From assembly GCA_045596215.1 (NCBI GenBank), contig JAZOBY010000070.1, positions 636 through 64,635 of the forward strand: a stretch of DNA of 64,000 bases. Direction: 5' to 3'. Position 1 is the stretch's first letter; each line of letters begins with the position of its first letter. This stretch comes from Faecousia sp. GTDB lineage: Bacteria > Bacillota > Clostridia > Oscillospirales > Oscillospiraceae. The notes below the pieces were generated by a model that was given only the letters and a program-made list of their open reading frames with translations, did not search any database and was not told the DNA's origin. The translations under genes were made by a program, and so were the position numbers. Below are positions 1-11,827 of the stretch, piece by piece.

Positions 1-852
1 CGTCATCAGGAAGGCCAGGCGGATACCCCTGCTCACACATTGGCCGCTACCATTCAGAATCGTTACCCTGCGGTAGCCATCGAGGAGATCTTCGGTGATA
101 TGGCAGCCATGCGTGCCGTTAAGTCTGATGCGGAATTGGAATTGATGCGGAAGGCACAGCACACAACCTGCAATGCCATCATTGCCATGCTCCGCCACGC
201 AAAGCCGGAAATGAACGAAAGCGAACTGGAAGGTGCGTTTGACTTTTCCTTGAAGAAGCAGTGCGTTCGGGATCATGCCTTTACCAGCATCATTGCCGGC
301 GGCAGCCGTGCAACCACGCTGCACTACGACAATAACGATCAGATCGTGCATGACGGCGAGATGGTTTTGATCGACCTTGGTTCTGCTGAGGGTAAATACT
401 GTGCCGATATCTCCCGGACATTCCCCATCAACGGCAAGTTCACCCCGCGTCAGAAGGAGCTGTATAACACAGTTTTGGAGGCACAGCGGATCGTTATTGC
501 CAACGCCAAGCCGGGCATGACCACTATGGAGCTGAACCAAATGGTCATTGATTATTATGAATCCCGTCTGGATGCTTTGGGATTGCGTAAGGATGGAAAA
601 GGTGTTCGCGACTACTATTATCACAATGTTAGCCACAGCCTTGGCCTGGATACCCATGACATTTGCACCATGCGTGAGAGAACCTTGCAGCCCGGTATGG
701 TAATTACCGTCGAACCCGGCCTTTATGTAGAGGAAGAGGGCATCGGCATCCGCATTGAAAACGATGTGCTGATTACCGAGGACGGTGTGATTGATCTGTC
801 TGCAGAAATTCCCAGAACCGTGGAAGAAATTGAAGCCATTATGGCAAAGTAA
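1..852 (+). CDS. pepP: Xaa-Pro aminopeptidase (M24B), 5'-truncated by the window edge
   Basis: Frame is open from base 1; motifs TLHY, DLG..YCADISRTFP, HSLGLDTHD, TVEPGLY, GIRIENDVLIT. Confidence 0.9.
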   Translation, partial: RHQEGQADTPAHTLAATIQNRYPAVAIEEIFGDMAAMRAVKSDAELELMRKAQHTTCNAIIAMLRHAKPEMNESELEGAFDFSLKKQCVRDHAFTSIIAGGSRATTLHYDNNDQIVHDGEMVLIDLGSAEGKYCADISRTFPINGKFTPRQKELYNTVLEAQRIVIANAKPGMTTMELNQMVIDYYESRLDALGLRKDGKGVRDYYYHNVSHSLGLDTHDICTMRERTLQPGMVITVEPGLYVEEEGIGIRIENDVLITEDGVIDLSAEIPRTVEEIEAIMAK

Positions 853-858
853 ATGAAC

Positions 859-882
859 GGCCCTATCCACTTGGATAGGGCC
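859..882. terminator. Hairpin between convergent pepP and the cotJC 3' part
   Basis: GGCCCTATCCA-CT-TGGATAGGGCC perfect inverted repeat. Confidence 0.75.
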
Positions 883-889
883 ACATCTT

Positions 890-1303
890 TTACATATCAA
901 ACGCCGGGTTCAAACAGTACACATTCTTCTGATTGAGTCGCTCACGCAGTTGTTGCAGGCTTTCGCCAAAGCGTTGGAAATGGACGACTTCCCGTTCCCG
1001 GAGGAACTTGATTACGTCGTTTACGTCAGGATCATCGGAAAGTCTTAGAATGTTGTCATAAGTCACTCTCGCTTTTTGCTCTGCGGCCAGATCTTCTGTC
1101 AGATCCGCAATTGGATCACCTTTGACCTGGATGGTTGCTGCAGTCCAGGGGAATCCGGATGCCGCAGTGGGATATACTCCGGTAGTATGGTCTACAAAAT
1201 ACTGCTCCAAGGGCGTATTCTCAATGTCCTTTTCTTTCAAATTACGGGTCAGCTGATGCACGATTGCCGCCACCATTTCCAGGTGGCCCAATTCTTCCGT
1301 GCC
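890..1303 (-). CDS. cotJC: Spore coat manganese catalase CotJC, 3' fragment (residues 62-198 after excision)
   Basis: Reads (G)TEELGHLEMVAAIVHQL...GDPIADLTEDLAAEQKARVTYDNILRLSDDPDV...FLREREVVHFQRFGE, the C-terminal two thirds of CotJC; no convincing start of its own. Confidence 0.93.
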   Translation of the reverse strand, partial: GTEELGHLEMVAAIVHQLTRNLKEKDIENTPLEQYFVDHTTGVYPTAASGFPWTAATIQVKGDPIADLTEDLAAEQKARVTYDNILRLSDDPDVNDVIKFLREREVVHFQRFGESLQQLRERLNQKNVYCLNPAFDM

Positions 1304-1328
1304 TATTGAAGATTAAAAATGGTCATGT
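1278..1328. other. Left recombination junction of the cotJC-intervening element, crossover CC at 1302-1303
   Basis: cotJC similarity stops at 1302-1303; element arm TATTGAAGATTAAAAATGGTCAT is an inverted copy of the arm at 11063-11085. Confidence 0.88.
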
Positions 1329-1334
1329 TATAAT
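1306..1334 (+). promoter_or_regulatory. SigA-type promoter overlapping the left att arm
   Basis: TTGAAG (1306-1311), 17 bp spacer, TG-T-TATAAT (1326-1334). Confidence 0.65.
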
Positions 1335-1345
1335 AACCCAAGAAA

Positions 1346-1377
1346 GGCACTTTCCTACAAGCACTCTGCATACAATA
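1346..1377 (+). promoter_or_regulatory. Putative mother-cell sigE/sigK promoter upstream of the recombinase
   Basis: CATACAATA at 1369-1377 matches the sigE CATACA-T and sigK CATA---TA -10 consensus; GGCACT at 1346-1351 is a weaker -35. Confidence 0.5.
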
Positions 1378-1409
1378 GCAGAGAGGCTTATAGCAAGGTG
1401 GCGTTATAT

Positions 1410-1553
1410 TTGATAGTTAATCCCGAAGCTTTGACTATTACAAAAGCTGAGTGTGATGCGTTACTTAATGAATTCACGCATTACATACGGGATGTTTTTT
1501 CCATTAGAGAAATAAAGGAGGAAGTACGCAGTGGCAAAAACCCAAGTTATTGA
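1410..1553 (+). CDS. 47-aa small ORF overlapping the recombinase start, candidate directionality factor
   Basis: TTG start with AAGGTGG upstream (alternative in-frame GTG at 1398); MIVNPEALTITKAECDALLNEFTHYIRDVFSIREIKEEVRSGKNPSY. Confidence 0.45.
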   Translation: MIVNPEALTITKAECDALLNEFTHYIRDVFSIREIKEEVRSGKNPSY

Positions 1554-3222
1554 ACCAATCAAACGCCTGCTGAAAACAGAAGATGACCAGCCGCGAAATG
1601 TGTGCGCCTACTGCCGCGTTAGTACAGATGAATTCGACCAACGAAATTCACTGGTAGCACAAAAGCAGTTTTTCCAGCGGTATTTCTCACAACACCAAAA
1701 TTGGACAAATATAGGCATTTTTGCAGACGAAGGACTCAGCGGCACATCGCTTGAAAAGCGAGACGAGTTCAACAGGATGCTTGCGCTTGCCCGGTATGGC
1801 GGTGTTGAGATAATACTGACGAAGGAGGTATCCCGTTTCTCACGAAATGTGCAGCATCTGCTAAATATTGTGGAAGAACTCCGGAACAAAGGTGTTTACA
1901 TCTGGTTTTTATCTGATGATATCAACACTGAAAGTAATGACTACCGAGACAAATTAACCGAAGCGGCAACTAATGCTGAAAAAGAAAGCCTGAGAACTTC
2001 CCGCCGTGTGCGTTGGGGACATCAGCAACGTATGCAGCAAGGTGCAGTATTTGGCAGGAAGGAAATGTTCGGCTATAATATCGTTCGTGACAAAGACGGA
2101 ATTCAGCGCTTTGTTATCATTGAGGACGAAGCAGAAATCGTACGCCAGATTTATCAATGGTATGCTTCTGGTGACGGTACATTTACCATTGCAAAGCGGC
2201 TGCAGCAGATGGGCGTGAAAACCAAGCGATACAAAAACGGTTGGAGCAATGTAGTTATTCTACGGCTGTTGCGGAATGAGAAATATGTAGGTGACCTTGC
2301 TCAGGGCAAGACCTATACCCCTGACCCTCTTACCCATAAGAAGAAATATAACCGGGGTGATTCCATTAGCTTCTACATAACCGACCACCATCCAGAGGCA
2401 GCAATCGTCAGCCGTGACCTGTGGGATAAGGTGCAAAAAAGACTGAAAGAAAATGAACCTTCGGACGAGGTCAAAGCAAAGCACTCAAACCGCTACTGGA
2501 CATCCGGTAAGATTTATTGTGGCTGCTGTGGCAATTCCTATATCAGTGTGCGAAAAAAGCAGCAGAACGGCTTGTATAGGGCCTGGGAGTGCATTGAGAA
2601 CCACGAGCGCGGTCTACCGCGTCAGATTGTAAATGACCTGGGGGAAGTTGTTCCGGTCGGTTGCACTGGTAGACGGGTCAACGAGCGCGTTCTGGCAATG
2701 GCTTTGCACGATATTATCACACAGTTGATTATCCCCCATAAGGAGAAAATTTGCGCTACTCTTCGAGAGGACTACGATACGCTAACTAAACCCAAGGATA
2801 ACAGGGCACAAATAACAGCGGTAGAGAAAAAGCTCTCAAAGAGGCGGGAAGATATCGTTTCTCTTACCGATAAGTATATGAGCGGAATTGTTCCGGAGTT
2901 GGCATATACAGCCACTTCCAAGGCGTACCAAGATGAAATCAAGGAATTGGAATTGGACCTTGCGCAACTGAAACAAGAGGGTATCACTGCTGCTATGGAA
3001 GCCAGCGCATACACAGATTACATTGCCCAGATTGAACGCATTGTAGCTCTTTCGGATGAAGAGATAAACGAAGGTCTCTATGAACGAGTCACAAAGAGAA
3101 TCGTTGTACATCCCGAGCAGGTCTTGGAAATCCATCTGTCCTTTATGGCGAAGCCTATCTTTATGCGCTATAAAACGCAGGGCAGGGGAGCAACCTACAC
3201 AGCAATCTTTGAAATCCTGTAA
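1531..3222 (+). CDS. Large serine recombinase (resolvase, recombinase, zinc-ribbon/coiled-coil domains)
   Basis: AYCRVST catalytic Ser, DEGLSGT, TKEVSRFSRN, LRNEKYVG, CGCCG zinc ribbon, C-terminal coiled coil; RBS AAGGAGG. Confidence 0.95.
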   Translation: MAKTQVIEPIKRLLKTEDDQPRNVCAYCRVSTDEFDQRNSLVAQKQFFQRYFSQHQNWTNIGIFADEGLSGTSLEKRDEFNRMLALARYGGVEIILTKEVSRFSRNVQHLLNIVEELRNKGVYIWFLSDDINTESNDYRDKLTEAATNAEKESLRTSRRVRWGHQQRMQQGAVFGRKEMFGYNIVRDKDGIQRFVIIEDEAEIVRQIYQWYASGDGTFTIAKRLQQMGVKTKRYKNGWSNVVILRLLRNEKYVGDLAQGKTYTPDPLTHKKKYNRGDSISFYITDHHPEAAIVSRDLWDKVQKRLKENEPSDEVKAKHSNRYWTSGKIYCGCCGNSYISVRKKQQNGLYRAWECIENHERGLPRQIVNDLGEVVPVGCTGRRVNERVLAMALHDIITQLIIPHKEKICATLREDYDTLTKPKDNRAQITAVEKKLSKRREDIVSLTDKYMSGIVPELAYTATSKAYQDEIKELELDLAQLKQEGITAAMEASAYTDYIAQIERIVALSDEEINEGLYERVTKRIVVHPEQVLEIHLSFMAKPIFMRYKTQGRGATYTAIFEIL

Positions 3223-3228
3223 TACTAA

Positions 3229-3262
3229 AATAAGCCATGTGTGGTTTCACGCATGGCTTATT
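3229..3262. terminator. Bidirectional terminator
   Basis: AATAAGCCATGTGTG-GTTT-CACGCATGGCTTATT between convergent genes. Confidence 0.75.
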
Positions 3263-3614
3263 CTTTTGGATTCGCGGATGAATCTCTTAGATTTTTCATT
3301 GCCTGGACTTGTGCGATTTCATCACGGACATAGTTAAGGAATATCAACAAAAATGTCTCTTCCTCAACACCATTATCAAAGAGTTTTTCCGGGTTTGTAA
3401 TGAGCCTGTTCCGTTCATAGTTGTGCACAAGAACATAGCAATTATAGGTGTACACTAAATAGTATAAAACATCTTCAGGATTTTTGATTTTCTCAATATC
3501 TCGATATTGGCTGGTCGTGATTTTATCAAGCACATAATCAAAGAACTCATTATTTCGAGCATACATATCAGGGCTATTCTTATAAAAGTGTTTCATTTCT
3601 GCATATGAATTCAA
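3258..3614 (-). CDS. Hypothetical protein (118 aa), coupled to the XRE gene
   Basis: TTG start overlaps the xre stop; RBS GAAAGGGTG; AT-rich. Confidence 0.65.
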   Translation of the reverse strand: MNSYAEMKHFYKNSPDMYARNNEFFDYVLDKITTSQYRDIEKIKNPEDVLYYLVYTYNCYVLVHNYERNRLITNPEKLFDNGVEEETFLLIFLNYVRDEIAQVQAMKNLRDSSANPKE

Positions 3615-3898
3615 GGATTATCACCCTTTCTATCTATCGGCTCGATACTGACTTCATCTTTATCCAGCAGGTCGTTGTAAGTTACTCCGAGAGCCTCAGC
3701 AAGGTAGACAATTTCGATATCTGTAACAAATCGTTTGCCGGCTTCAATCCGCTGTACGGCATTTTTATCGATATCCAATCCGCGCAGTTGGAGCAGACCA
3801 GCCAGCTTGTTCTGCGATAGACCGGCTGCTTTACGGTACACGGCGACATTACGCCCACAGACATTGTTATCACCGTTTACGGTCTTGTTAATGAACAT
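3611..3898 (-). CDS. XRE-family HTH transcriptional regulator
   Basis: RKAAGLSQNKLA...AVQRIEAGKR...LAEALGV HTH pattern; ATG at 3898 with GAAAGGTGG RBS. Confidence 0.88.
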   Translation of the reverse strand: MFINKTVNGDNNVCGRNVAVYRKAAGLSQNKLAGLLQLRGLDIDKNAVQRIEAGKRFVTDIEIVYLAEALGVTYNDLLDKDEVSIEPIDRKGDNP

Positions 3899-3934
3899 AA
3901 TTCCGCCACCTTTCGGCATAAATATTCCAGATTT

Positions 3935-4008
3935 ATGACATTCACTACTTGTCATTTTGAATATTGTATGCTAAAATGGTGCAGAGAATGACATTCACTA
4001 AATGTCGT
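3935..4008. promoter_or_regulatory. Two palindromic operators flanking a sigA promoter for the cargo genes
   Basis: ATGACA-ttcactact-TGTCAT (3935-3955) and ATGACA-ttcactaaa-TGTCGT (3988-4008); TTGTCA (3949-3954), 17 bp, TAAAAT (3972-3977) with upstream TG. Confidence 0.75.
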
Positions 4009-4041
4009 CGATTAGAAAAAAATAGAAAGGGACGTTTGTTT

Positions 4042-4668
4042 ATGCCTTACTGTCAGAGCTGTGGTGCAGAAGTAGCTGGCAACTTCTGCCCGAACTGCGG
4101 TGCGCAAGCTGGTTCCGTGCCTCCTGCTGCTCCGCAACTTATCATTCACAAGGATGTGGATGTAAAACCCAGATACAATACCATTTCACTGGCGATTGCT
4201 GGATGGATGGGCTTTGCTTGCTTGATTATGACGCTGGTGTTTTTTATCTATGGTGTCTTAATCGCCGAGGGAACCTTTGGCGACAAGATGGGGTTTGTGA
4301 TTGCTACACTTGTTTGTGCGGGTCTGACCTATCTATGTTATTTGCCTGGTATTAGTACCATCCGCAAGCGTTCCCCTGAGGGAGAGGTGATGTCCACATT
4401 CTGGAGCTTCTTCGGAAAGTCTTTCCTTTTCTTTTTTGCATGGGGCGTTACCATTGCTGGTTGTGTCTATATTATTGGTATCTTTTTCAAGGTTTGGCGT
4501 TTTGGTCTGTGGGCTTCTCGCCCCAATGATGACCAGTACACTGCGTTTGTAGACGGCAAAAAAATCCCGGTTACCAGATATTACGATGACTTGCCTGACT
4601 ACGGAGCAAGAGGTGACTGGGTTTATCGGGACGAAAATGGTGAGTTCTACCGCCCACCTGTCAAATAA
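4042..4668 (+). CDS. Zinc-ribbon membrane protein
   Basis: N-terminal CQSCG...CPNCG, several hydrophobic helices; RBS GAAAGGGA. Confidence 0.8.
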   Translation: MPYCQSCGAEVAGNFCPNCGAQAGSVPPAAPQLIIHKDVDVKPRYNTISLAIAGWMGFACLIMTLVFFIYGVLIAEGTFGDKMGFVIATLVCAGLTYLCYLPGISTIRKRSPEGEVMSTFWSFFGKSFLFFFAWGVTIAGCVYIIGIFFKVWRFGLWASRPNDDQYTAFVDGKKIPVTRYYDDLPDYGARGDWVYRDENGEFYRPPVK

Positions 4669-4685
4669 CAAGGAGGAACAATCGT

Positions 4686-6404
4686 ATGAAAAGACTAATG
4701 AGCATCCTGCTGGCTGTGGTGATGATTATGGCGCTTGCTGTGCCTGCTATGGCTAACGGGGAAACCGAAAGCACAGAACCGAACCTGCTGGCTCATGCCG
4801 GTGATATGACCTACTATGTGGGCGGCTATGGCGCTATGCCTGGTGGTTATCAGTGTATGGTCGACCATACCTATGTGGAAAATTTTGATATTTCCTTCGG
4901 TGACCCCATTATAGAGAACTGGCCCACAGAGGCTGGCACATACACTGTCAATTTCACCAAAACCACCGCAATCAAGGGTGCAGGCGATACGGAATATACA
5001 TTTAATATTTCTATGAACATTACCGTTTTGGAACTGCCTGAGTTGTCCGGTCAGTGCGGCGACACGATGAACTGGAGCTTTGACAAGGATAGTTACACCC
5101 TGACCATTTCCGGCACTGGCGATATGTACACCATTGCCGCAAGTGACGAAGATTTCCAAAACGAAAACTTTAGCTATAAGCCTGGATGGTGGGATTTGCC
5201 TGTTAGGCATATTATAATTGAAGAAGGTGTAGAGAATCTGGCGAACTACACCTTTACGCAAGTCGGAATTTGCACTTACTACCAAATCCTTGAGACCATT
5301 CAGCTCCCAACTACGCTGGAAGCAATTCCCGAATTAGGTTTCCTGATGTCTAATGCTATGACATCCCTGACCATCCCCGAGGGTATCACCTCTATTACCG
5401 GTTGGCCTTTCGGATATCCAGGCAATAGCTTTTTGCCACTGACTGACCTGTATCTGCCCTCCACGCTGACCGAAATGGATATTGTGACGATTATTCTGGC
5501 TGGATATACGAACACACGGCCTATCACACAGACATTGAAGACTATCCACTTCGCAGGCACTGAGGAACAGTGGAAAGCCATTAATCAGATTCGCTCCGAA
5601 ACTATGCAGTCCATTATGCCTGTCGATGATGAAACCTATGCTCTTTACGAAGAAATGTTCAACGGAATTACTGTCGTCTTTGAACCCAAGGAAGATGCAA
5701 AAGAAGAAATCACAGTTGAGAACGGCACCGCTACTGTCCCTGACAGCTCTGTGGAAATCACCGAGGGCAAAGATGTTGTTATCGATGTGACCGATACCGA
5801 GGAGAAGGTCAGCAGCGTGGTCATCGGCTTTGAGACCGTAGACAAGATTGCCGATGCCGAGACCGCTGTGGAAATCAAACTGCCAGATGCCACTGTCAGT
5901 TTTGACAAGACCGCTATCGGCTCCATTGGTACACAGGCCGGAGAAACCGCCGTTACCATCGTAGCCAAGGAGGTCGAGGATACCACCCTGACTACCGAGC
6001 AGAAAGCTGCTCTGGAGGAAAAGGAAGTCTGCGCCATTCTGAATCTGGAAGCATTTGCCGGCGAGACCAAAATCACCGAGTTTGGCGGCGGCAAGGTCAC
6101 GGTCTCCGTACCCTTTACACTGCCTGAGGGTAAGGCTGGCACAGACTACTATGTCGCCTATGTGGCCGATGATGGCACCATCACCGCTATGCCTACCACC
6201 TATGCTGACGGTATTCTATCCTTCGAGACTACCCACTTCTCCAGCTATGTGGTACTGGAAAACAAGACTGTCACACCGGAACCCACACCTGACCCCAGTA
6301 ACCCCCAGACGGGCGACAATAGTATGCTGTTCCTGTGGGTCACTGTGATGCTTCTCAGTGCTGCCGGACTAACTGTCTGCCTTACCAAACGTCGTGCTTT
6401 CTAA
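4686..6404 (+). CDS. Sortase-anchored surface protein with BspA-like leucine-rich repeats
   Basis: Signal peptide; LETIQLPTTLEAI and LTIPEGITSI repeats; C-terminal NPQTG, hydrophobic helix, KRR tail. Confidence 0.85.
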   Translation: MKRLMSILLAVVMIMALAVPAMANGETESTEPNLLAHAGDMTYYVGGYGAMPGGYQCMVDHTYVENFDISFGDPIIENWPTEAGTYTVNFTKTTAIKGAGDTEYTFNISMNITVLELPELSGQCGDTMNWSFDKDSYTLTISGTGDMYTIAASDEDFQNENFSYKPGWWDLPVRHIIIEEGVENLANYTFTQVGICTYYQILETIQLPTTLEAIPELGFLMSNAMTSLTIPEGITSITGWPFGYPGNSFLPLTDLYLPSTLTEMDIVTIILAGYTNTRPITQTLKTIHFAGTEEQWKAINQIRSETMQSIMPVDDETYALYEEMFNGITVVFEPKEDAKEEITVENGTATVPDSSVEITEGKDVVIDVTDTEEKVSSVVIGFETVDKIADAETAVEIKLPDATVSFDKTAIGSIGTQAGETAVTIVAKEVEDTTLTTEQKAALEEKEVCAILNLEAFAGETKITEFGGGKVTVSVPFTLPEGKAGTDYYVAYVADDGTITAMPTTYADGILSFETTHFSSYVVLENKTVTPEPTPDPSNPQTGDNSMLFLWVTVMLLSAAGLTVCLTKRRAF

Positions 6405-6424
6405 GTTGATAAGCCCATAAAAAT

Positions 6425-6465
6425 AGTGAGCGAGTTGCGTTAATGCGTGACCCGCTCACTTTTCT
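6425..6465 (+). terminator. Rho-independent terminator
   Basis: AGTGAGCG...CGCTCACT stem followed by T-rich tract. Confidence 0.7.
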
Positions 6466-6721
6466 ATATGGGATTCCAAACATCAGATATGTGATATAAA
6501 TGGAAATATATACACCGGTGGTCGTTACTGCGGTATCCCGCCAAATGCTGACGGCAAGCACAATGGTGGGTTACAAAATATAGTAAGTTATCTTCGATAT
6601 ATTAATCAGGGGTCCGAGGCCGCCGCGCCCGTATATACTCAATAGAGGTATCTAAAATTATATATAAATGAAGTCCTCTCTGTCATTGTAATGGAAAGAC
6701 AATAACAAGGAGGCTTAATTT

Positions 6722-8452
6722 ATGTCTTATTATGCTGACTATTTAGCAGCAAAATGCGAGGAAGGTTGGGGCCAGGAAACCGACTGGATGGACTTCTATT
6801 GCAGCATCTTCGATGGCGGTCTTCCATACGGGAGCAAGAAATTTGCCAAGGACACCTATCTGGCAATCCTGCTCACCGTGGGCCCCAAGAAAAACGAAAT
6901 CCGGAAGCGGTTGGTGGATGAGGATTTATTTCCCCTGCAATCGGTGATTGCCAACCCCAGGGAAGGAACCACCAGCTTTATCAGTCCCATTACCTATGCA
7001 GGTAATTCCAAGAGCATCAAAAACGCCCGGTTCATGTTTGCTATGTGCATCGAGGTAGACGACCTGTTGGAGGAAACTGCTGAGGATGGAACAATCCGAT
7101 TCACTGGGCTGGAACACTTGATTGGAGAATGGGAGCGAGGGGTAATTCCAAAGCCAACCTATATCGTATCCTCCGGTAACGGTATCCACCTATACTATCA
7201 GTTCGTGGAAAAGCTCCCCATGTATACTCCGAACGAGCGTAAATTCATGAATATGCGCCGTGAATTGAGTCCTATGCTTTGGAATGCCGGATTGTCCACA
7301 AGCAAGGTACAGATTCAATCCACGGTACAGGGCTATCGGGTAGTTGGCTCTATCACTAAAAGCGGAAAAATCTGCCGGGCTTTTAAGGTTGGAGAACGGG
7401 TTACTCTGGAATACTTAAACGGATTTCTTTCTGAGGAAAACCGGGCGACTGACCTCCAATGGGGTCCAAAGCATTGCAGCCGGGATTATGCCCAAAAGCA
7501 TTATCCAGAATGGTGGGCTTCACAGCAAGAGAAGAAGAAAAAGCGGAAAGAGGAAGGACCGCCCCACTACATTGTCAGCCGCGCCGTGTATGACAATTGG
7601 AAGAATCGCATCGAAGCGGAAGTAGAGGTTGGGCATCGAGCCGGGTGTATGATGACGCTGGCAATCTATGCCTTAAAATGTGGCATCACCGAAGACGAGT
7701 TAATCCGGGATATTGAGTATTTTTCAGAATACTTTGATTCCCTGACCATAGACGAAAATAATCATTTTACTCTTGAGGAAGGAATGGCTGCTCTCAAATA
7801 TTACCGCAATCCCGAGTATTACACTTACCCCAACACCAGTATTTCTTACCGTTCCGGCATAGAGATTGTTCCCACCGAGAGGAATTTCCGTTCAAGGGAG
7901 GACCATCTTAAAATGTGTCGGGAGCGTGCTGCAGCTAAGACTTCCAAAAGGGACGCGGTCCGGGAATGGCGACTGGCTAACCCTGAGGGAAGAAAGTCTG
8001 ATTGCGTGCGCGCAACAAGCATTTCCAAGCGCACCGTGGATAAGTGGTGGGACATTTGTCTCGACAAGCGCAAGAAGGCACCTAAGCGTAAGCTGGTCAA
8101 AACCAAATGGTGCGACTGCTGTGGGAAGGAACAGCCCTTTGAACGCGGCACCGGAGTTCACTTTAACTCCTATAATCAGCACGCATACGAAGATGTAATT
8201 TTCAAGTGTGCGGTCTGCGGTCAGGTAGTAGGTAAATACGGAAAGAAGCACTACCGAACCTTTGATTCAGACCTTGAGTATCTGCGTTGGTACGAACTGC
8301 AGTACAAGCAAGGCTTTGGCTTAGATGGTCGCCTTCGGGAGGATTACAAACACGAACACCAAGAGGATGTGTGGTCGGTAGTGGATAACGGATATATTCC
8401 GCCCGATGTGGTTGAAGCATTGATTAAGAAGTACGGAGGACAGCAACAATGA
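6722..8452 (+). CDS. Primase-like replication initiator (Rep) with C-terminal HTH and Cys4 motif
   Basis: IEVDDL and PTYIVSSGNGIHLYY motifs of AEP-like plasmid Rep proteins; HTH-like RKSDCVRATSISKRTVDKWW; CDCCG...CAVCG. Confidence 0.7.
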   Translation: MSYYADYLAAKCEEGWGQETDWMDFYCSIFDGGLPYGSKKFAKDTYLAILLTVGPKKNEIRKRLVDEDLFPLQSVIANPREGTTSFISPITYAGNSKSIKNARFMFAMCIEVDDLLEETAEDGTIRFTGLEHLIGEWERGVIPKPTYIVSSGNGIHLYYQFVEKLPMYTPNERKFMNMRRELSPMLWNAGLSTSKVQIQSTVQGYRVVGSITKSGKICRAFKVGERVTLEYLNGFLSEENRATDLQWGPKHCSRDYAQKHYPEWWASQQEKKKKRKEEGPPHYIVSRAVYDNWKNRIEAEVEVGHRAGCMMTLAIYALKCGITEDELIRDIEYFSEYFDSLTIDENNHFTLEEGMAALKYYRNPEYYTYPNTSISYRSGIEIVPTERNFRSREDHLKMCRERAAAKTSKRDAVREWRLANPEGRKSDCVRATSISKRTVDKWWDICLDKRKKAPKRKLVKTKWCDCCGKEQPFERGTGVHFNSYNQHAYEDVIFKCAVCGQVVGKYGKKHYRTFDSDLEYLRWYELQYKQGFGLDGRLREDYKHEHQEDVWSVVDNGYIPPDVVEALIKKYGGQQQ

Positions 8453-8697
8453 CAATTACAAGTGTTGTAGCAGATACCGGGCGTTTCTCCAACCAGTTTG
8501 GACGGATTCATTATTTAATACGATTGGTGGATGGGCAGATTATATACTGCCCAAATGCCAAGAAGGTCGATAATGCCGTCGTTGGAGGATGCGGTGCTCT
8601 GAAGGGAAAGACCGTCCGAATTGAGACGGTTCCGCATCCGAAATATCCCAAACTGGTGGACCTCTGCATCGTTAGTGCAGAACGCCCCACCGCGTAG
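8449..8697 (+). CDS. Hypothetical protein (82 aa)
   Basis: ATGA overlap with the rep stop; RBS GGAGGA. Confidence 0.65.
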   Translation: MTITSVVADTGRFSNQFGRIHYLIRLVDGQIIYCPNAKKVDNAVVGGCGALKGKTVRIETVPHPKYPKLVDLCIVSAERPTA

Positions 8698-8710
8698 GTG
8701 GCCTTCGGAG

Positions 8711-8751
8711 AACTCCGCTTCCGCGACTTCGCGGAAGTATACGGAGTTATA
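8711..8751 (+). other. Candidate MOBV-type oriT
   Basis: Nested inverted repeat AACTCCG-CTTCCGCGA-CT-TCGCGGAAG-TATA-CGGAGTT with AAGTATA-N5-TTATA, directly upstream of the relaxase. Confidence 0.55.
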
Positions 8752-8828
8752 AACGCGTCTAACGCCAAGTTATCCGTATTCCTCCCGTGTCATTATTAGG
8801 GTGACTACTTTTTAAGGAGGAAATCACC

Positions 8829-9869
8829 ATGACAAACAAAGTTCGAGCAACCATGCACAACGGCAGGGGTCGAAACTCCGTTGGCTTCAAAGTCCGGCAC
8901 AATGATAGGGATTTTGACACCACCCATGCCGAGCATATCAATCCAGCGCCCAACCGAAAGAACAGGTATTTCATCATGGAGGCGGACGGCACGGTGAACA
9001 ATCGCCCACAAATCTCCTTTGAAACACACGAGAAAAGAATGTATAACCACCTTTTCTACGAGACCCTGAGTAAACAGGCTGAACGGCATATCAAGTCCGG
9101 TCATCGCGAACGCATCCGAACACCTGACCAATACCGTACCGCCATTCGCACCTGCCCTGAAGAGACTATTCTAATGCTCGGCACGCGAGAAAAGCACGCC
9201 GACTCGCAGGCTTTTATCAAAGCGGTCAATTTGTGGTGCCAGCAAATGAAGGCTGCCTACGGAACCCACTGGCGGCTCTTGGACGGAGCTCTACATTTTG
9301 ACGAGTCCACACCACACTGTCATATCAGGGCGGTCTGGACGGCAGAGGGCAAGGATGGTCTACAAGTCTCTGAGAATCAGGCACTGAGGGCACTGGGTAT
9401 CCAACGCCCCAACTTGGAGCAACCGGAGGGTAGGCACAACTGCCCAAAACAGACTTTTACACAGCAAGCCCGTGAAATCTGGATAACTGCCGCACGGGAG
9501 TACGGCATTGAGATTGAGGACATCCCTGAAATGCCTGGAAAAGTGACACGTACCAAGGAAGAGTACATCGCTCAAAAAGTCCGCAAGGAGATTGTGAAGC
9601 TGTCCGAGCAACGCGACCAAATCCGCGCTGAAGCCTCTCAGGCCGATTCTGAGCGGACCGCTCTTCGAGAAGAGGTTGCGGACTTGCAGAAGACTAAGGG
9701 GCGCTTAGAAGCGGCCGTGGCGCGTTTAAGAAAGATGCTGCAGCCTATTCAAAAGCTGTTTGAACGCTTGGCGACATACCACATCACCCCTGACCGAACA
9801 GTACTTGACGACATCCTGTCGGATGCAAAAACAACCCGCGCAATCCAATCACTGGATGCCCGGGCATAA
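8829..9869 (+). CDS. MobV/Pre-family relaxase (plasmid recombination enzyme)
   Basis: HNDR motif, HFDESTPHCH motif, C-terminal coiled coil; RBS AAGGAGG. Confidence 0.88.
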   Translation: MTNKVRATMHNGRGRNSVGFKVRHNDRDFDTTHAEHINPAPNRKNRYFIMEADGTVNNRPQISFETHEKRMYNHLFYETLSKQAERHIKSGHRERIRTPDQYRTAIRTCPEETILMLGTREKHADSQAFIKAVNLWCQQMKAAYGTHWRLLDGALHFDESTPHCHIRAVWTAEGKDGLQVSENQALRALGIQRPNLEQPEGRHNCPKQTFTQQAREIWITAAREYGIEIEDIPEMPGKVTRTKEEYIAQKVRKEIVKLSEQRDQIRAEASQADSERTALREEVADLQKTKGRLEAAVARLRKMLQPIQKLFERLATYHITPDRTVLDDILSDAKTTRAIQSLDARA

Positions 9870-9891
9870 TACCGCTTTGGAGGAAAATACT

Positions 9892-10158
9892 ATGAGTAAA
9901 TCAATTGACAGAAAGCCTACACTTGAGGAATGCCTGACACTCTGGAAACAGAAGGGCGAACTCACCACAGAGATTGAGGACTTAAAACTTGAGCAAGTCG
10001 GTTTGCGAGCCTCAGTAGATTATCTGCGACATGCTGAGCATAGACTACGGGTCAGTATCGCCAATCTCTGCTATGATATGTCCAATATCTTTAAGATTGC
10101 CGGGACTCTGGCAGACACAGAGCAAACGGGCACTTGGCAGAATCTACCCAAACCTTGA
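9892..10158 (+). CDS. Small coiled-coil protein (88 aa)
   Basis: ATG with GGAGG RBS; heptad pattern resembling the Mob C-terminus. Confidence 0.65.
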   Translation: MSKSIDRKPTLEECLTLWKQKGELTTEIEDLKLEQVGLRASVDYLRHAEHRLRVSIANLCYDMSNIFKIAGTLADTEQTGTWQNLPKP

Positions 10159-10337
10159 GGTCTTTTTCGGCCAGTTTGTCTTTATGAGATTGGTAGGCAG
10201 GGATACTACCATAGGCGCAGGTGCTGAGGCACGGACAGTACAACACCAGCGTCAACCGTGTTTTGATATTTGGTCTACTAATTGCGGTACTACCGCATGC
10301 TCTTGTCGGCATATCAATACCTTCCGTGCCAACTTAT

Positions 10338-10384
10338 ACCGTGGTGGGGTTTACCTTTCTCCCTCACCACGGTTTTTCTTTTTT
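10338..10384 (+). terminator. Terminator after the rep-mob module
   Basis: ACCGTGGTG...CACCACGGT followed by long T tract. Confidence 0.7.
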
Positions 10385-10471
10385 ACGCACACCCTTGCGC
10401 TGTCATTGTTAGATTGTAACCGTGGCACTGCCATGTAACATATAAATCTATGAATAGAGGAGAAACACAAA

Positions 10472-10921
10472 ATGGACAATCAATTTATCGAAGAACCTAA
10501 ATGTTTAACGGAGCGCTTTGTGGAAGCACTCAGTCTGGAAACCCAAACCGGAGAAATAAGGTGGCGATTTAAGGAAGGCTACGGAACTCCGGCAAAATGC
10601 ATATGTGAGGGGAGGGAACTGACAATCGTACCCGACTATTCCGACCCCGAGCAAGACGGCTACACCCTTTATAGTGCAGCCATAGACGGTACGGACTCCT
10701 GTATGCTTATGAGCGCGAAAGGGGTCCCGGCAATGCCTAACAGGCTGCGAAATCTGTACGAAGATATAGTGGAAGCCTCAAAAGAGAATCCCGAGCCTGC
10801 ATTAGCGCATATGGAGAGCTTTGTAAAGAAGTCTGCAGAAAAGCAATGCTTGTACTCTATCATAGATGCAATCAAGTTGCTCCACCGCACCATAACCACC
10901 AATCTGAAAGATGTATACTAA
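10472..10921 (+). CDS. Hypothetical protein (149 aa)
   Basis: ATG with GAGGAG RBS; no recognised motif. Confidence 0.7.
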   Translation: MDNQFIEEPKCLTERFVEALSLETQTGEIRWRFKEGYGTPAKCICEGRELTIVPDYSDPEQDGYTLYSAAIDGTDSCMLMSAKGVPAMPNRLRNLYEDIVEASKENPEPALAHMESFVKKSAEKQCLYSIIDAIKLLHRTITTNLKDVY

Positions 10922-11008
10922 CGCTACATACAGTCCTGCTTTTTCTTATTCTTTCTTTGTGGTAGGTCTGTGACATAAAACGCCGGTATTTCCGGTTACT
11001 CCTGTTAA

Positions 11009-11060
11009 CCCCCATACGCTGAATCTTTCTCCTTTCAGTTCAGCGTGTGGGGGCTTTTCT
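11009..11060. terminator. Hairpin just inside the right end of the element
   Basis: CCCCCATACGCTGAA...TTCAGCGTGTGGGGG then CTTTTCT. Confidence 0.7.
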
Positions 11061-11061
11061 A

Positions 11062-11110
11062 AATGCCCAAAATTAATCTTCTATACCGATATCTGTCAGC
11101 AGACCCTTTT
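11062..11110. other. Right recombination junction, crossover CC at 11086-11087
   Basis: cotJC 5' part ends at the GG of Gly62; element arm (minus strand) TATAGAAGATTAATTTTGGGCAT. Confidence 0.88.
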
Positions 11111-11270
11111 GGTCATCAAAGGGCATGGAGTATCTTTGGGCAAGATACCGCATGGATGCAGCCAACTCACCATCCGGCCCGCCGAACTGACTGATGATAA
11201 TGGATGCCAAACGGGGATTGGGGCGGGCGATCTTTACGGGATACTGCAACTTCTTGTCATATACAAACAT
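11073..11270 (-). CDS. cotJC: CotJC 5' fragment (residues 1-62 plus element-encoded IED and stop)
   Basis: MFVYDKKLQYPVKI...SQFGGPDGELAASMRYLAQRY...GLLTDIG is the CotJC N-terminus; follows cotJB. Confidence 0.93.
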   Translation of the reverse strand: MFVYDKKLQYPVKIARPNPRLASIIISQFGGPDGELAASMRYLAQRYSMPFDDQKGLLTDIGIED

Positions 11271-11273
11271 ACC

Positions 11274-11708
11274 TTAACCCTCCTTATTGGCTGCGTATTC
11301 CCAGGGCCACGGATCATCCAACCAACGATACCGCTCTCCCTGTACAGGCAGTCCGTGCTTCAAGGGGCGTTCTTCGTTAAACTCCATCATGCCCTTGTGA
11401 TAGATCTGTTGATACTTCCGGTACAACTCCAATGCCTCCGTGTCATGTGGATGCGTATCCAGGTAAAGGGCCAGCTCCTGGATCATAAAGGCAAGGGTTT
11501 GCAATTCCGTTTTGGGTGTAATGGGCTGTTCCTGTTGATTGACCATTCCCATAAAAGGCAGATCCAGTCCAGGGAACAGCGTACCACGAATCAGGGCTTT
11601 TCGCGGTTCGTACTGGGGCGGGCATTCCAGTTGAAAGGGAACGTAGGGATTTGCCAGCGGTGCCATCGCCGGCAGACGGCCCTCTGTGCCGTTGTTTTTC
11701 CGATTCAC
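11274..11708 (-). CDS. cotJB: Fused spore coat protein CotJA-CotJB
   Basis: LANPYVPFQ...ALIRGTLFPGL (CotJA) then ELALYLDTHP...WLDDPWPWE (CotJB); likely GTG start at 11708 after AGGAGG. Confidence 0.88.
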   Translation of the reverse strand: MNRKNNGTEGRLPAMAPLANPYVPFQLECPPQYEPRKALIRGTLFPGLDLPFMGMVNQQEQPITPKTELQTLAFMIQELALYLDTHPHDTEALELYRKYQQIYHKGMMEFNEERPLKHGLPVQGERYRWLDDPWPWEYAANKEG

Positions 11709-11827
11709 ATTCATTCCTCCTATCATAATTCAGTTGGAACTGTCGTTCCTGGTCATACTATGACTGTTCCTGCGGAAAAGTTCTGTGACAGGGGAGGAGG
11801 GCATAGAAATAAGCAGAGGTGATGACC

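Follow-up and report, generated by a model that had tools for sequence, protein, structure and literature searches.

The 64,000-nucleotide stretch analysed here (the window; from an uncultured gut bacterium, Faecousia sp., assembly GCA_045596215.1, contig JAZOBY010000070.1) carries the spore-coat gene cotJC in two pieces, separated by an insert that encodes a large serine recombinase (LSR). The gene sits in a cotJAB-cotJC operon, a mother-cell operon, and lies on the minus strand, its 5′ part at 11086-11270 and its 3′ part at 890-1301. Read on that strand, the frame of the 5′ part opens at 11270 and continues to ...CTGACAGATATCGG, after which comes TATAGAAGATTAA, with a GG at 11087-11086, and the boundary of the 3′ part reads ...TTAATCTTCAATAGG then CACGGAAGAATTG, also given as CACGGAAGAATTGGGCCAC, with a GG at 1303-1302 and the end of the gene at 890. 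Joining the two parts in silico gave 597 nt with a 198-aa frame and one terminal stop, reading ...LLTDIGTEELGHLEM..., and a peptide ...LLTDIGTEELGH... across the junction. The piece removed by this join is 9,784 bp long, with a GC content of 47.1% compared to about 50% in the flanks.

The joined protein matched the Pfam family Mn_catalase at 200.8 bits (cut-off 27) and is a full-length member with the ligands E...EExxH...E...H, adjoining cotJA/cotJB. Intact cotJC orthologues are present in most genomes of the same genus, and the joined CotJC aligned with them end to end (76-88% identity), with a residue-for-residue match across the junction. Taken alone, the 5′ frame reaches a stop 4 codons inside the element and the 3′ part has no in-frame start upstream. 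The break falls after the E35 region and ahead of the metal-ligand motif EELGH, and no substitute cotJC end is encoded by the element. As far as can be read from the DNA, the insert interrupts the frame of a mother-cell sporulation gene and its exact excision would restore cotJC. A preliminary description of this locus had proposed a gene rebuilt by joining at the shared GG with loss of 9,784 bp, halves free of stops and frameshifts, a break that separates the EExxH motif from the N-terminus and an element without a replacement gene end; all of this was borne out, and the two junction strings that it proposed for polymerase chain reaction are both correct. It had also raised the question of a second intact copy, and a whole-genome search of the 1.77-Mb, 80.5%-complete metagenome-assembled genome (MAG) found no second cotJC or Mn-catalase gene, only the two pieces.

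Contents and ends of the insert

The features of the locus are collected in Table 1. The recombinase matched the integrase family phrog_95 (3e-105) and its serine motif YCRVSTD is invariant. The relaxase candidate shares 30% identity with the annotated MobA of a Butyrivibrio plasmid, its relaxase profile matches lying below the curated cut-offs. Comparison with PHROGs matched only integrase and repressor families, with no phage structural, packaging or lysis genes in the insert, and PADLOC returned nothing credible for the cargo genes. Judged by its gene content, the 9,784-bp insert is not a prophage and is probably an integrative, plasmid-like mobilizable element with a candidate relaxase.

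The ends of the element form a near-palindromic attP around GG, TTAATCTTCAATA-GG-TATAGAAGATTAA, with arms that match at 12 of 13 positions. The attB string is ...GACAGATATCGG|CACGGAAGAA... and the attP string ...CTTCAATAGG|TATAGAAGAT.... In the window attL and attR have only the GG in common, and GG is likewise the sole stretch common to both junctions in all 12 aligned same-site loci (11 with this recombinase lineage and 1 with a different LSR), which fits the crossover dinucleotide of a serine integrase. The attR-side arm and its promoter are conserved in 10 other aligned loci with this recombinase lineage. Together, these results support the proposal of a site-specific LSR insertion in cotJAB-cotJC, from which attL x attR recombination would restore the gene.

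Table 1. Features of the split cotJC locus in window coordinates; aa, amino acids; HTH, helix-turn-helix; ORF, open reading frame.
Feature	Position	Strand	Basis
cotJC 3′ part	890..1301	-	codons 63-198 + stop, C of Gly62 codon at 1301; Mn_catalase positions 60-198, 112 bits, no stops
attR core and recombinase-proximal attP arm TATTGAAGATTAAAAATGG	1302..1334	+	GG/CC at 1302-1303; arm overlaps sigA-type promoter 1306-1334
Truncated 51-aa remnant of the small gene preceding the recombinase elsewhere	1398..1553	+	alignment; keeps only the LI(V/T)NPEAL...Y(I)RD half
Large serine recombinase, 563 aa	1531..3222	+	Resolvase 100.4, Recombinase 83.1, Zn_ribbon_recom 28.3 bits, all above cut-off
118-aa helical protein, candidate directionality factor	3258..3614	-	full-length paralogue of the recombinase-upstream small gene
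XRE-type HTH regulator, 114 aa, first gene of xre/118-aa operon	3611..3955	-	HTH_31 33.4 bits; repressor PHROGs
sigE-like promoter TCATTCT-14 nt-CATACAAT (predicted)	3963..3991	-	faces xre/118-aa operon
234-aa zinc-ribbon protein	3964..4668	+	weak DZR match
572-aa cargo protein	4686..6404	+	weak BspA-type leucine-rich-repeat match
576-aa plasmid Rep-like protein	6722..8452	+	34-37% identity over ~420 aa (E 1e-61 to 5e-75) to main ORF of 3.5-5.8-kb plasmids
346-aa Mob (MobV/Pre-like) relaxase candidate	8829..9869	+	Mob_Pre 23.8 bits, below cut-off; MobV 26.3 bits
Two small ORFs, 135 and 149 aa	10031..10921	+	no family match in profile, PHROGs, relaxase searches
attL: core GG (11087-11086) and distal attP arm TATAGAAGATTAATTTTGGGCATTT	11050..11087	-	junction reading and alignment
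cotJC 5′ part	11086..11270	-	codons 1-61 + GG of Gly62; Mn_catalase positions 1-66, 73.6 bits
Fused cotJA-cotJB	11274..11726	-	directly upstream of cotJC; CotJA 55.7 bits, CotJB 71.3 bits

An insertion of this kind could be dead, that is, a pseudogene in the making around an element no longer able to excise. Truncated recombinases do occur in some relatives, and the window CotJC has 5 private substitutions, the highest count, at sites where the rest of the genus sample shows no variation. Set against this, all of these substitutions are conservative and one intact relative has 4, the two cotJC parts contain no stops or frameshifts, the recombinase is full length with three domains and its catalytic motif, and both att arms are intact; we consider a dead insertion very improbable. 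These substitutions give no clear sign of relaxed constraint on the window CotJC. The ratio of nonsynonymous to synonymous substitution rates (dN/dS, omega) for the two halves was 0.02-0.06 where computable, the same as in pairs of intact genes, and with dS saturated (>1.8 or undefined) it says nothing on selection after insertion.

Two further observations concern the surroundings of these features. Between xre and the rightward genes (3899-4041), repeated ATGACA...TGTCAT palindromes lie over a sigA-type promoter, TTGTCA-17-TAAAAT, and by their layout look like an operator switch for the cargo genes. At the left end of the contig (C70; window 1-889), no relative has common DNA downstream of cotJC.

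Recurrence of cotJC insertions

Scanning species-representative genomes with the recombinase returned 9 loci (59-99% identity) in Faecousia, Flemingiibacterium, Acutalibacteraceae and a goat Clostridia MAG, and the genus relative G012 supplied a tenth. In 10 of 10 of these further loci the recombinase gene adjoins the 3′ part of a cotJC gene that is broken at this GG as well. The complete elements of this lineage measure 5.1-9.8 kb and have conserved arms. A scan of metagenome contigs with the same protein gave 2 loci only. The identities of recombinase and host gene are decoupled: between loci L022 and L025 the recombinases are 96% and the CotJC proteins 64% identical, and between L022 and L026 the values are 58% and 93%. 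This indicates that the lineage moves horizontally and re-finds the same site.

The element of G012 (L015; G012:C94, 7227-7604), compared with window 1302-1340, occupies the same GG in the opposite orientation. Its proximal arm, read in the direction of the recombinase, is as in the window (TATTGAAGATTAAAA...ATGTTATAATA), with GG instead of CC as the core, and its small gene and recombinase gene lie directly downstream of the cotJ operon and co-directional with it. By this comparison of arms and cores, the family includes a natural example in which a flipped core dinucleotide reverses insertion polarity.

Four further LSR lineages, 27-35% identical to that of the window, likewise have cotJC as their target and occupy three conserved motifs, namely the DIGTEE-coding stretch (two lineages), the QYGGPDGE stretch (one) and a site near residue 132 (one). 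Among 251 sampled genomes of the family, 202 had a cotJC match; by approximate count, about 119 of the matches listed were full length and about 70 were only high-identity partial matches, some of which are contig ends. Rejoining both parts where they lie on one contig restored an open frame of 193-203 aa in 19 of 19 carriers, and the decay of the halves in other carriers, which the preliminary description had named as evidence against its proposal, was seen in none of them.

Nearly identical elements in different species raise the question of whether the split gene is an assembly chimera, in which cotJC parts from two co-occurring species were joined through a common element. Different Faecousia species do carry elements with 96-99% identical recombinases, only 1.9 kb of contig lies to the left of the element, and the M24 peptidase gene in the left flank lacks a close orthologue in 5 congeners (best 34% identity). 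Both cotJC parts are nevertheless closest to the same relative, L003 (88.5% and 87.5%), and contigs from three other gut-metagenome runs of two studies independently bridge both occupied junctions in related strains. Even if the contig were chimeric, each junction alone would show an insertion. A chimera therefore seems to us scarcely credible.

Several loci depart from the common form. Very small cotJC inserts, of about 2.0 and 4.7 kb, were seen at L042 (G290:C5, 12172-14726) and L049 (G060:C72); their serine recombinase ends after the Recombinase domain (267 aa without a zinc ribbon in L042), yet joining the cotJC parts again yields an open frame. The 3.1-kb insert at L039 (G245:C1, 1059-4217) contains an LSR gene and an apparent pyrimidine-nucleoside phosphorylase gene (Glycos_transf_3, 149 bits). 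In G232:C1, G128:C39, G176:C228 and G209:C112, among others, the cotJC 3′ ORF reaches 100-190 codons into the element (277-358 aa), possibly because it is fused in frame to a gene of the element. Besides the recombinase of the insert, the genome under study has one more large serine recombinase (L053; G000:C85, 526-3762; 514 aa), which is encoded beside a tyrosine integrase gene near mreB/recD2, and no split sporulation gene was seen at that locus.

Promoters, a candidate directionality factor and the timing of excision

In five relatives, a small gene of about 105-115 aa with the motifs YNCYELLH and LSLITNPDALF immediately precedes the recombinase gene, with an overlap at the start of the latter. 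All 7 aligned elements of the lineage have a gene for the small protein, 5 of them at this position. In the window the recombinase-upstream copy has shrunk to 51 aa and a full-length 118-aa paralogue follows xre instead. The 118-aa protein is predicted to form a helical bundle (predicted local distance difference test, pLDDT, 77); it gave no usable match in the PDB fold search or the protein atlas and no family similarity in the libraries searched. Its predicted binding to recombinase residues 180-563 scored 0.44, compared to 0.02 for the best control, with runs agreeing in at least 60% of contacts and a partner pLDDT of at least 80; the tool rates this as weak support, a mark reached by 58 of 80 solved complexes and 2 of 110 mismatched pairs.

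The xre/118-aa operon is faced by TCATTCT-14-CATACAAT, a close fit to the sigE consensus of B. subtilis and hence a predicted promoter. Among the proteins encoded in the genome are a sigE-like one (347 bits), a sigK-like one whose gene is uninterrupted (284 bits) and SpoIVA (605 bits), with CATACCCT upstream of spoIVA. A CATA(C/T)AAT match about 162 nt upstream of the recombinase gene resembled a conserved sigE -10 box and was rejected as promoter evidence, being coding sequence for the SYN motif of the small gene.

From these features we propose the following mechanism, to which we assign a probability of about 0.5. The LSR recognises a single attB, the conserved cotJC stretch encoding TDIG|TEE, with crossover at the GG of the Gly62 codon. 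Acting on attL and attR, this enzyme would free the element as a circle and restore the 198-aa CotJC exactly. The trigger would most likely be sporulation: mother-cell sigE would fire the promoter of the xre/118-aa operon, and the 118-aa protein would then act as the directionality factor for a recombinase expressed from its own sigA-type promoter. This promoter is probably self-repressed, as suggested by the position of its -35 box inside the attP arm. Only the terminal mother cell would regain an intact cotJC; the element would stay in the forespore. The sequences themselves show the structure, the site specificity, the recurrence across the family and the restoration of the gene in silico, whereas the timing, the part played by the 118-aa protein and the activity of the promoter are inferred. 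Developmental timing of the excision is plausible, at about even odds.

A serious alternative, which we regard as quite possible, is that the insert is an ordinary integrative mobilizable element for which cotJC is a conserved, harmless landing site; carriers would form spores without CotJC, and excision would not be tied to sporulation but would happen rarely or in connection with transfer, as in Tn4451/Tn5397. Several results weigh on this side and against a sporulation-timed switch. The recombinase gene, in most relatives together with the small gene, is preceded by a strong, conserved sigA-type promoter with an extended -10 (TTGAAG-17-TGtTATAAT, 1306-1334 in the window) and not by a sporulation promoter. 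The sigE-like motif is a single instance, found again only in a relative that is 95% identical, which makes its conservation uninformative. CATACAHT occurs at chance frequency in the window, although 4 of 6 matches are inside the element, and no enrichment of sigE/sigK-type motifs, nor any general sporulation motif, was found upstream of the recombinases in the four other lineages. The LSRs target those coding stretches of cotJC that are conserved best, as expected for a broad-host-range choice of attB. Excision may serve transfer, given the Rep-like and Mob-like genes and the clear horizontal movement between genera (recombinase 96% versus cotJC 64%). Intact halves are also what is expected if the element merely comes and goes, and they are uninformative in a family of elements that spreads horizontally and is capable of precise excision; even relatives whose recombinase is truncated have them. 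In B. subtilis, loss of cotJC is mild.

The search for excised molecules, which the preliminary description had suggested by read mining, covered the assembled contigs of public runs. It succeeded for the occupied junctions, bridged in related strains as described above, and no excised form of this strain was seen among those contigs, a weak point in favour of the landing-site explanation. One contig with an uninterrupted DIGTEE junction was rejected as evidence of excision: it carries several synonymous differences from this strain and therefore represents the intact cotJC of another species. A joint from 1201 to 11230 in X4, the middle of which is unknown, was likewise rejected.

What a harmless landing site does not readily explain is that a single gene used only in the mother cell has become the target of five separate LSR lineages, and that about a third of the species representatives of the family are interrupted, yet decay was found in 0 of 19 checked. 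The sigE-like promoter before the candidate directionality-factor operon and the proven developmental role of the same logic in gerE, sigK, spsM and spoVFB also speak for sporulation-timed excision. A wider version of that proposal makes cotJC a family-wide locus of programmed rearrangement, in about a third of Oscillospiraceae species and with at least five recombinase lineages, a new helical directionality factor driven by sigE, a circle that is a replicating mobilizable plasmid and sporulation as its launch point; we offer it as a tentative extension that is rather unlikely to hold in full.

If excision is timed to sporulation, a large share of gut spore-formers would rebuild a coat gene by DNA rearrangement, and a defined recombinase, an attB/attP pair and a candidate directionality factor would be at hand for testing. 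A phenomenon of a few model Bacilli and Clostridia would, if this is true, extend to dominant uncultured gut Clostridia. Annotation pipelines will label cotJC a pseudogene in carriers, and assemblers may fuse species through the common element.

Relation to known intervening elements

Among mobilizable transposons, Tn4451 and Tn5397 combine an LSR (TnpX or TndX) with a Mob/Pre-type relaxase and excise as a circle. TnpX and TndX need no directionality factor to act in both directions, and their targets are many and GA-centred. The window element has an LSR and a Mob-like candidate in common with these transposons, and its family differs in its one fixed site and GG core.

cotJC-intervening elements were already in print before this case. 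In Laceyella sacchari, according to Galperin et al. (bioRxiv 10.1101/2022.02.25.481979), cotJC is interrupted by a skin-like element, the same target and kind, known from genome sequence only and from Bacilli, compared to the gut Oscillospiraceae considered here. cotJC is also among the integration targets in Abe et al. 2013, according to its citation in bioRxiv 10.1101/2021.11.22.469490. The literature searched held no experimental report of a cotJC rearrangement.

Sporulation gene-intervening elements include skin, vfbin, vrin, SPbeta in spsM and the non-phage gin of gerE (PMC5595907, PMC4191935, PMC5025042). skinCd of Clostridioides difficile, with CD1231 and the directionality factor CD1234 (PMC5025042), and skin of B. 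subtilis target sigK, a timing-critical regulator, whereas cotJC encodes a structural coat protein. The arrangement in the window matches this class of elements, above all gin in gerE of Bacillus cereus ATCC 10987 (PMC5595907), which is likewise a non-phage element with an LSR inside a small mother-cell sporulation gene that exact excision rebuilds. gin is 28.6 kb long with three recombinases and a 9-bp overlap; the window element, at 9.8 kb, has a single recombinase, its core measures 2 bp and its cargo is plasmid Rep/Mob-like. Excision of gin by GirC needs a small accessory factor, GirX, and the counterpart of this factor in the window would be the candidate 118-aa protein.

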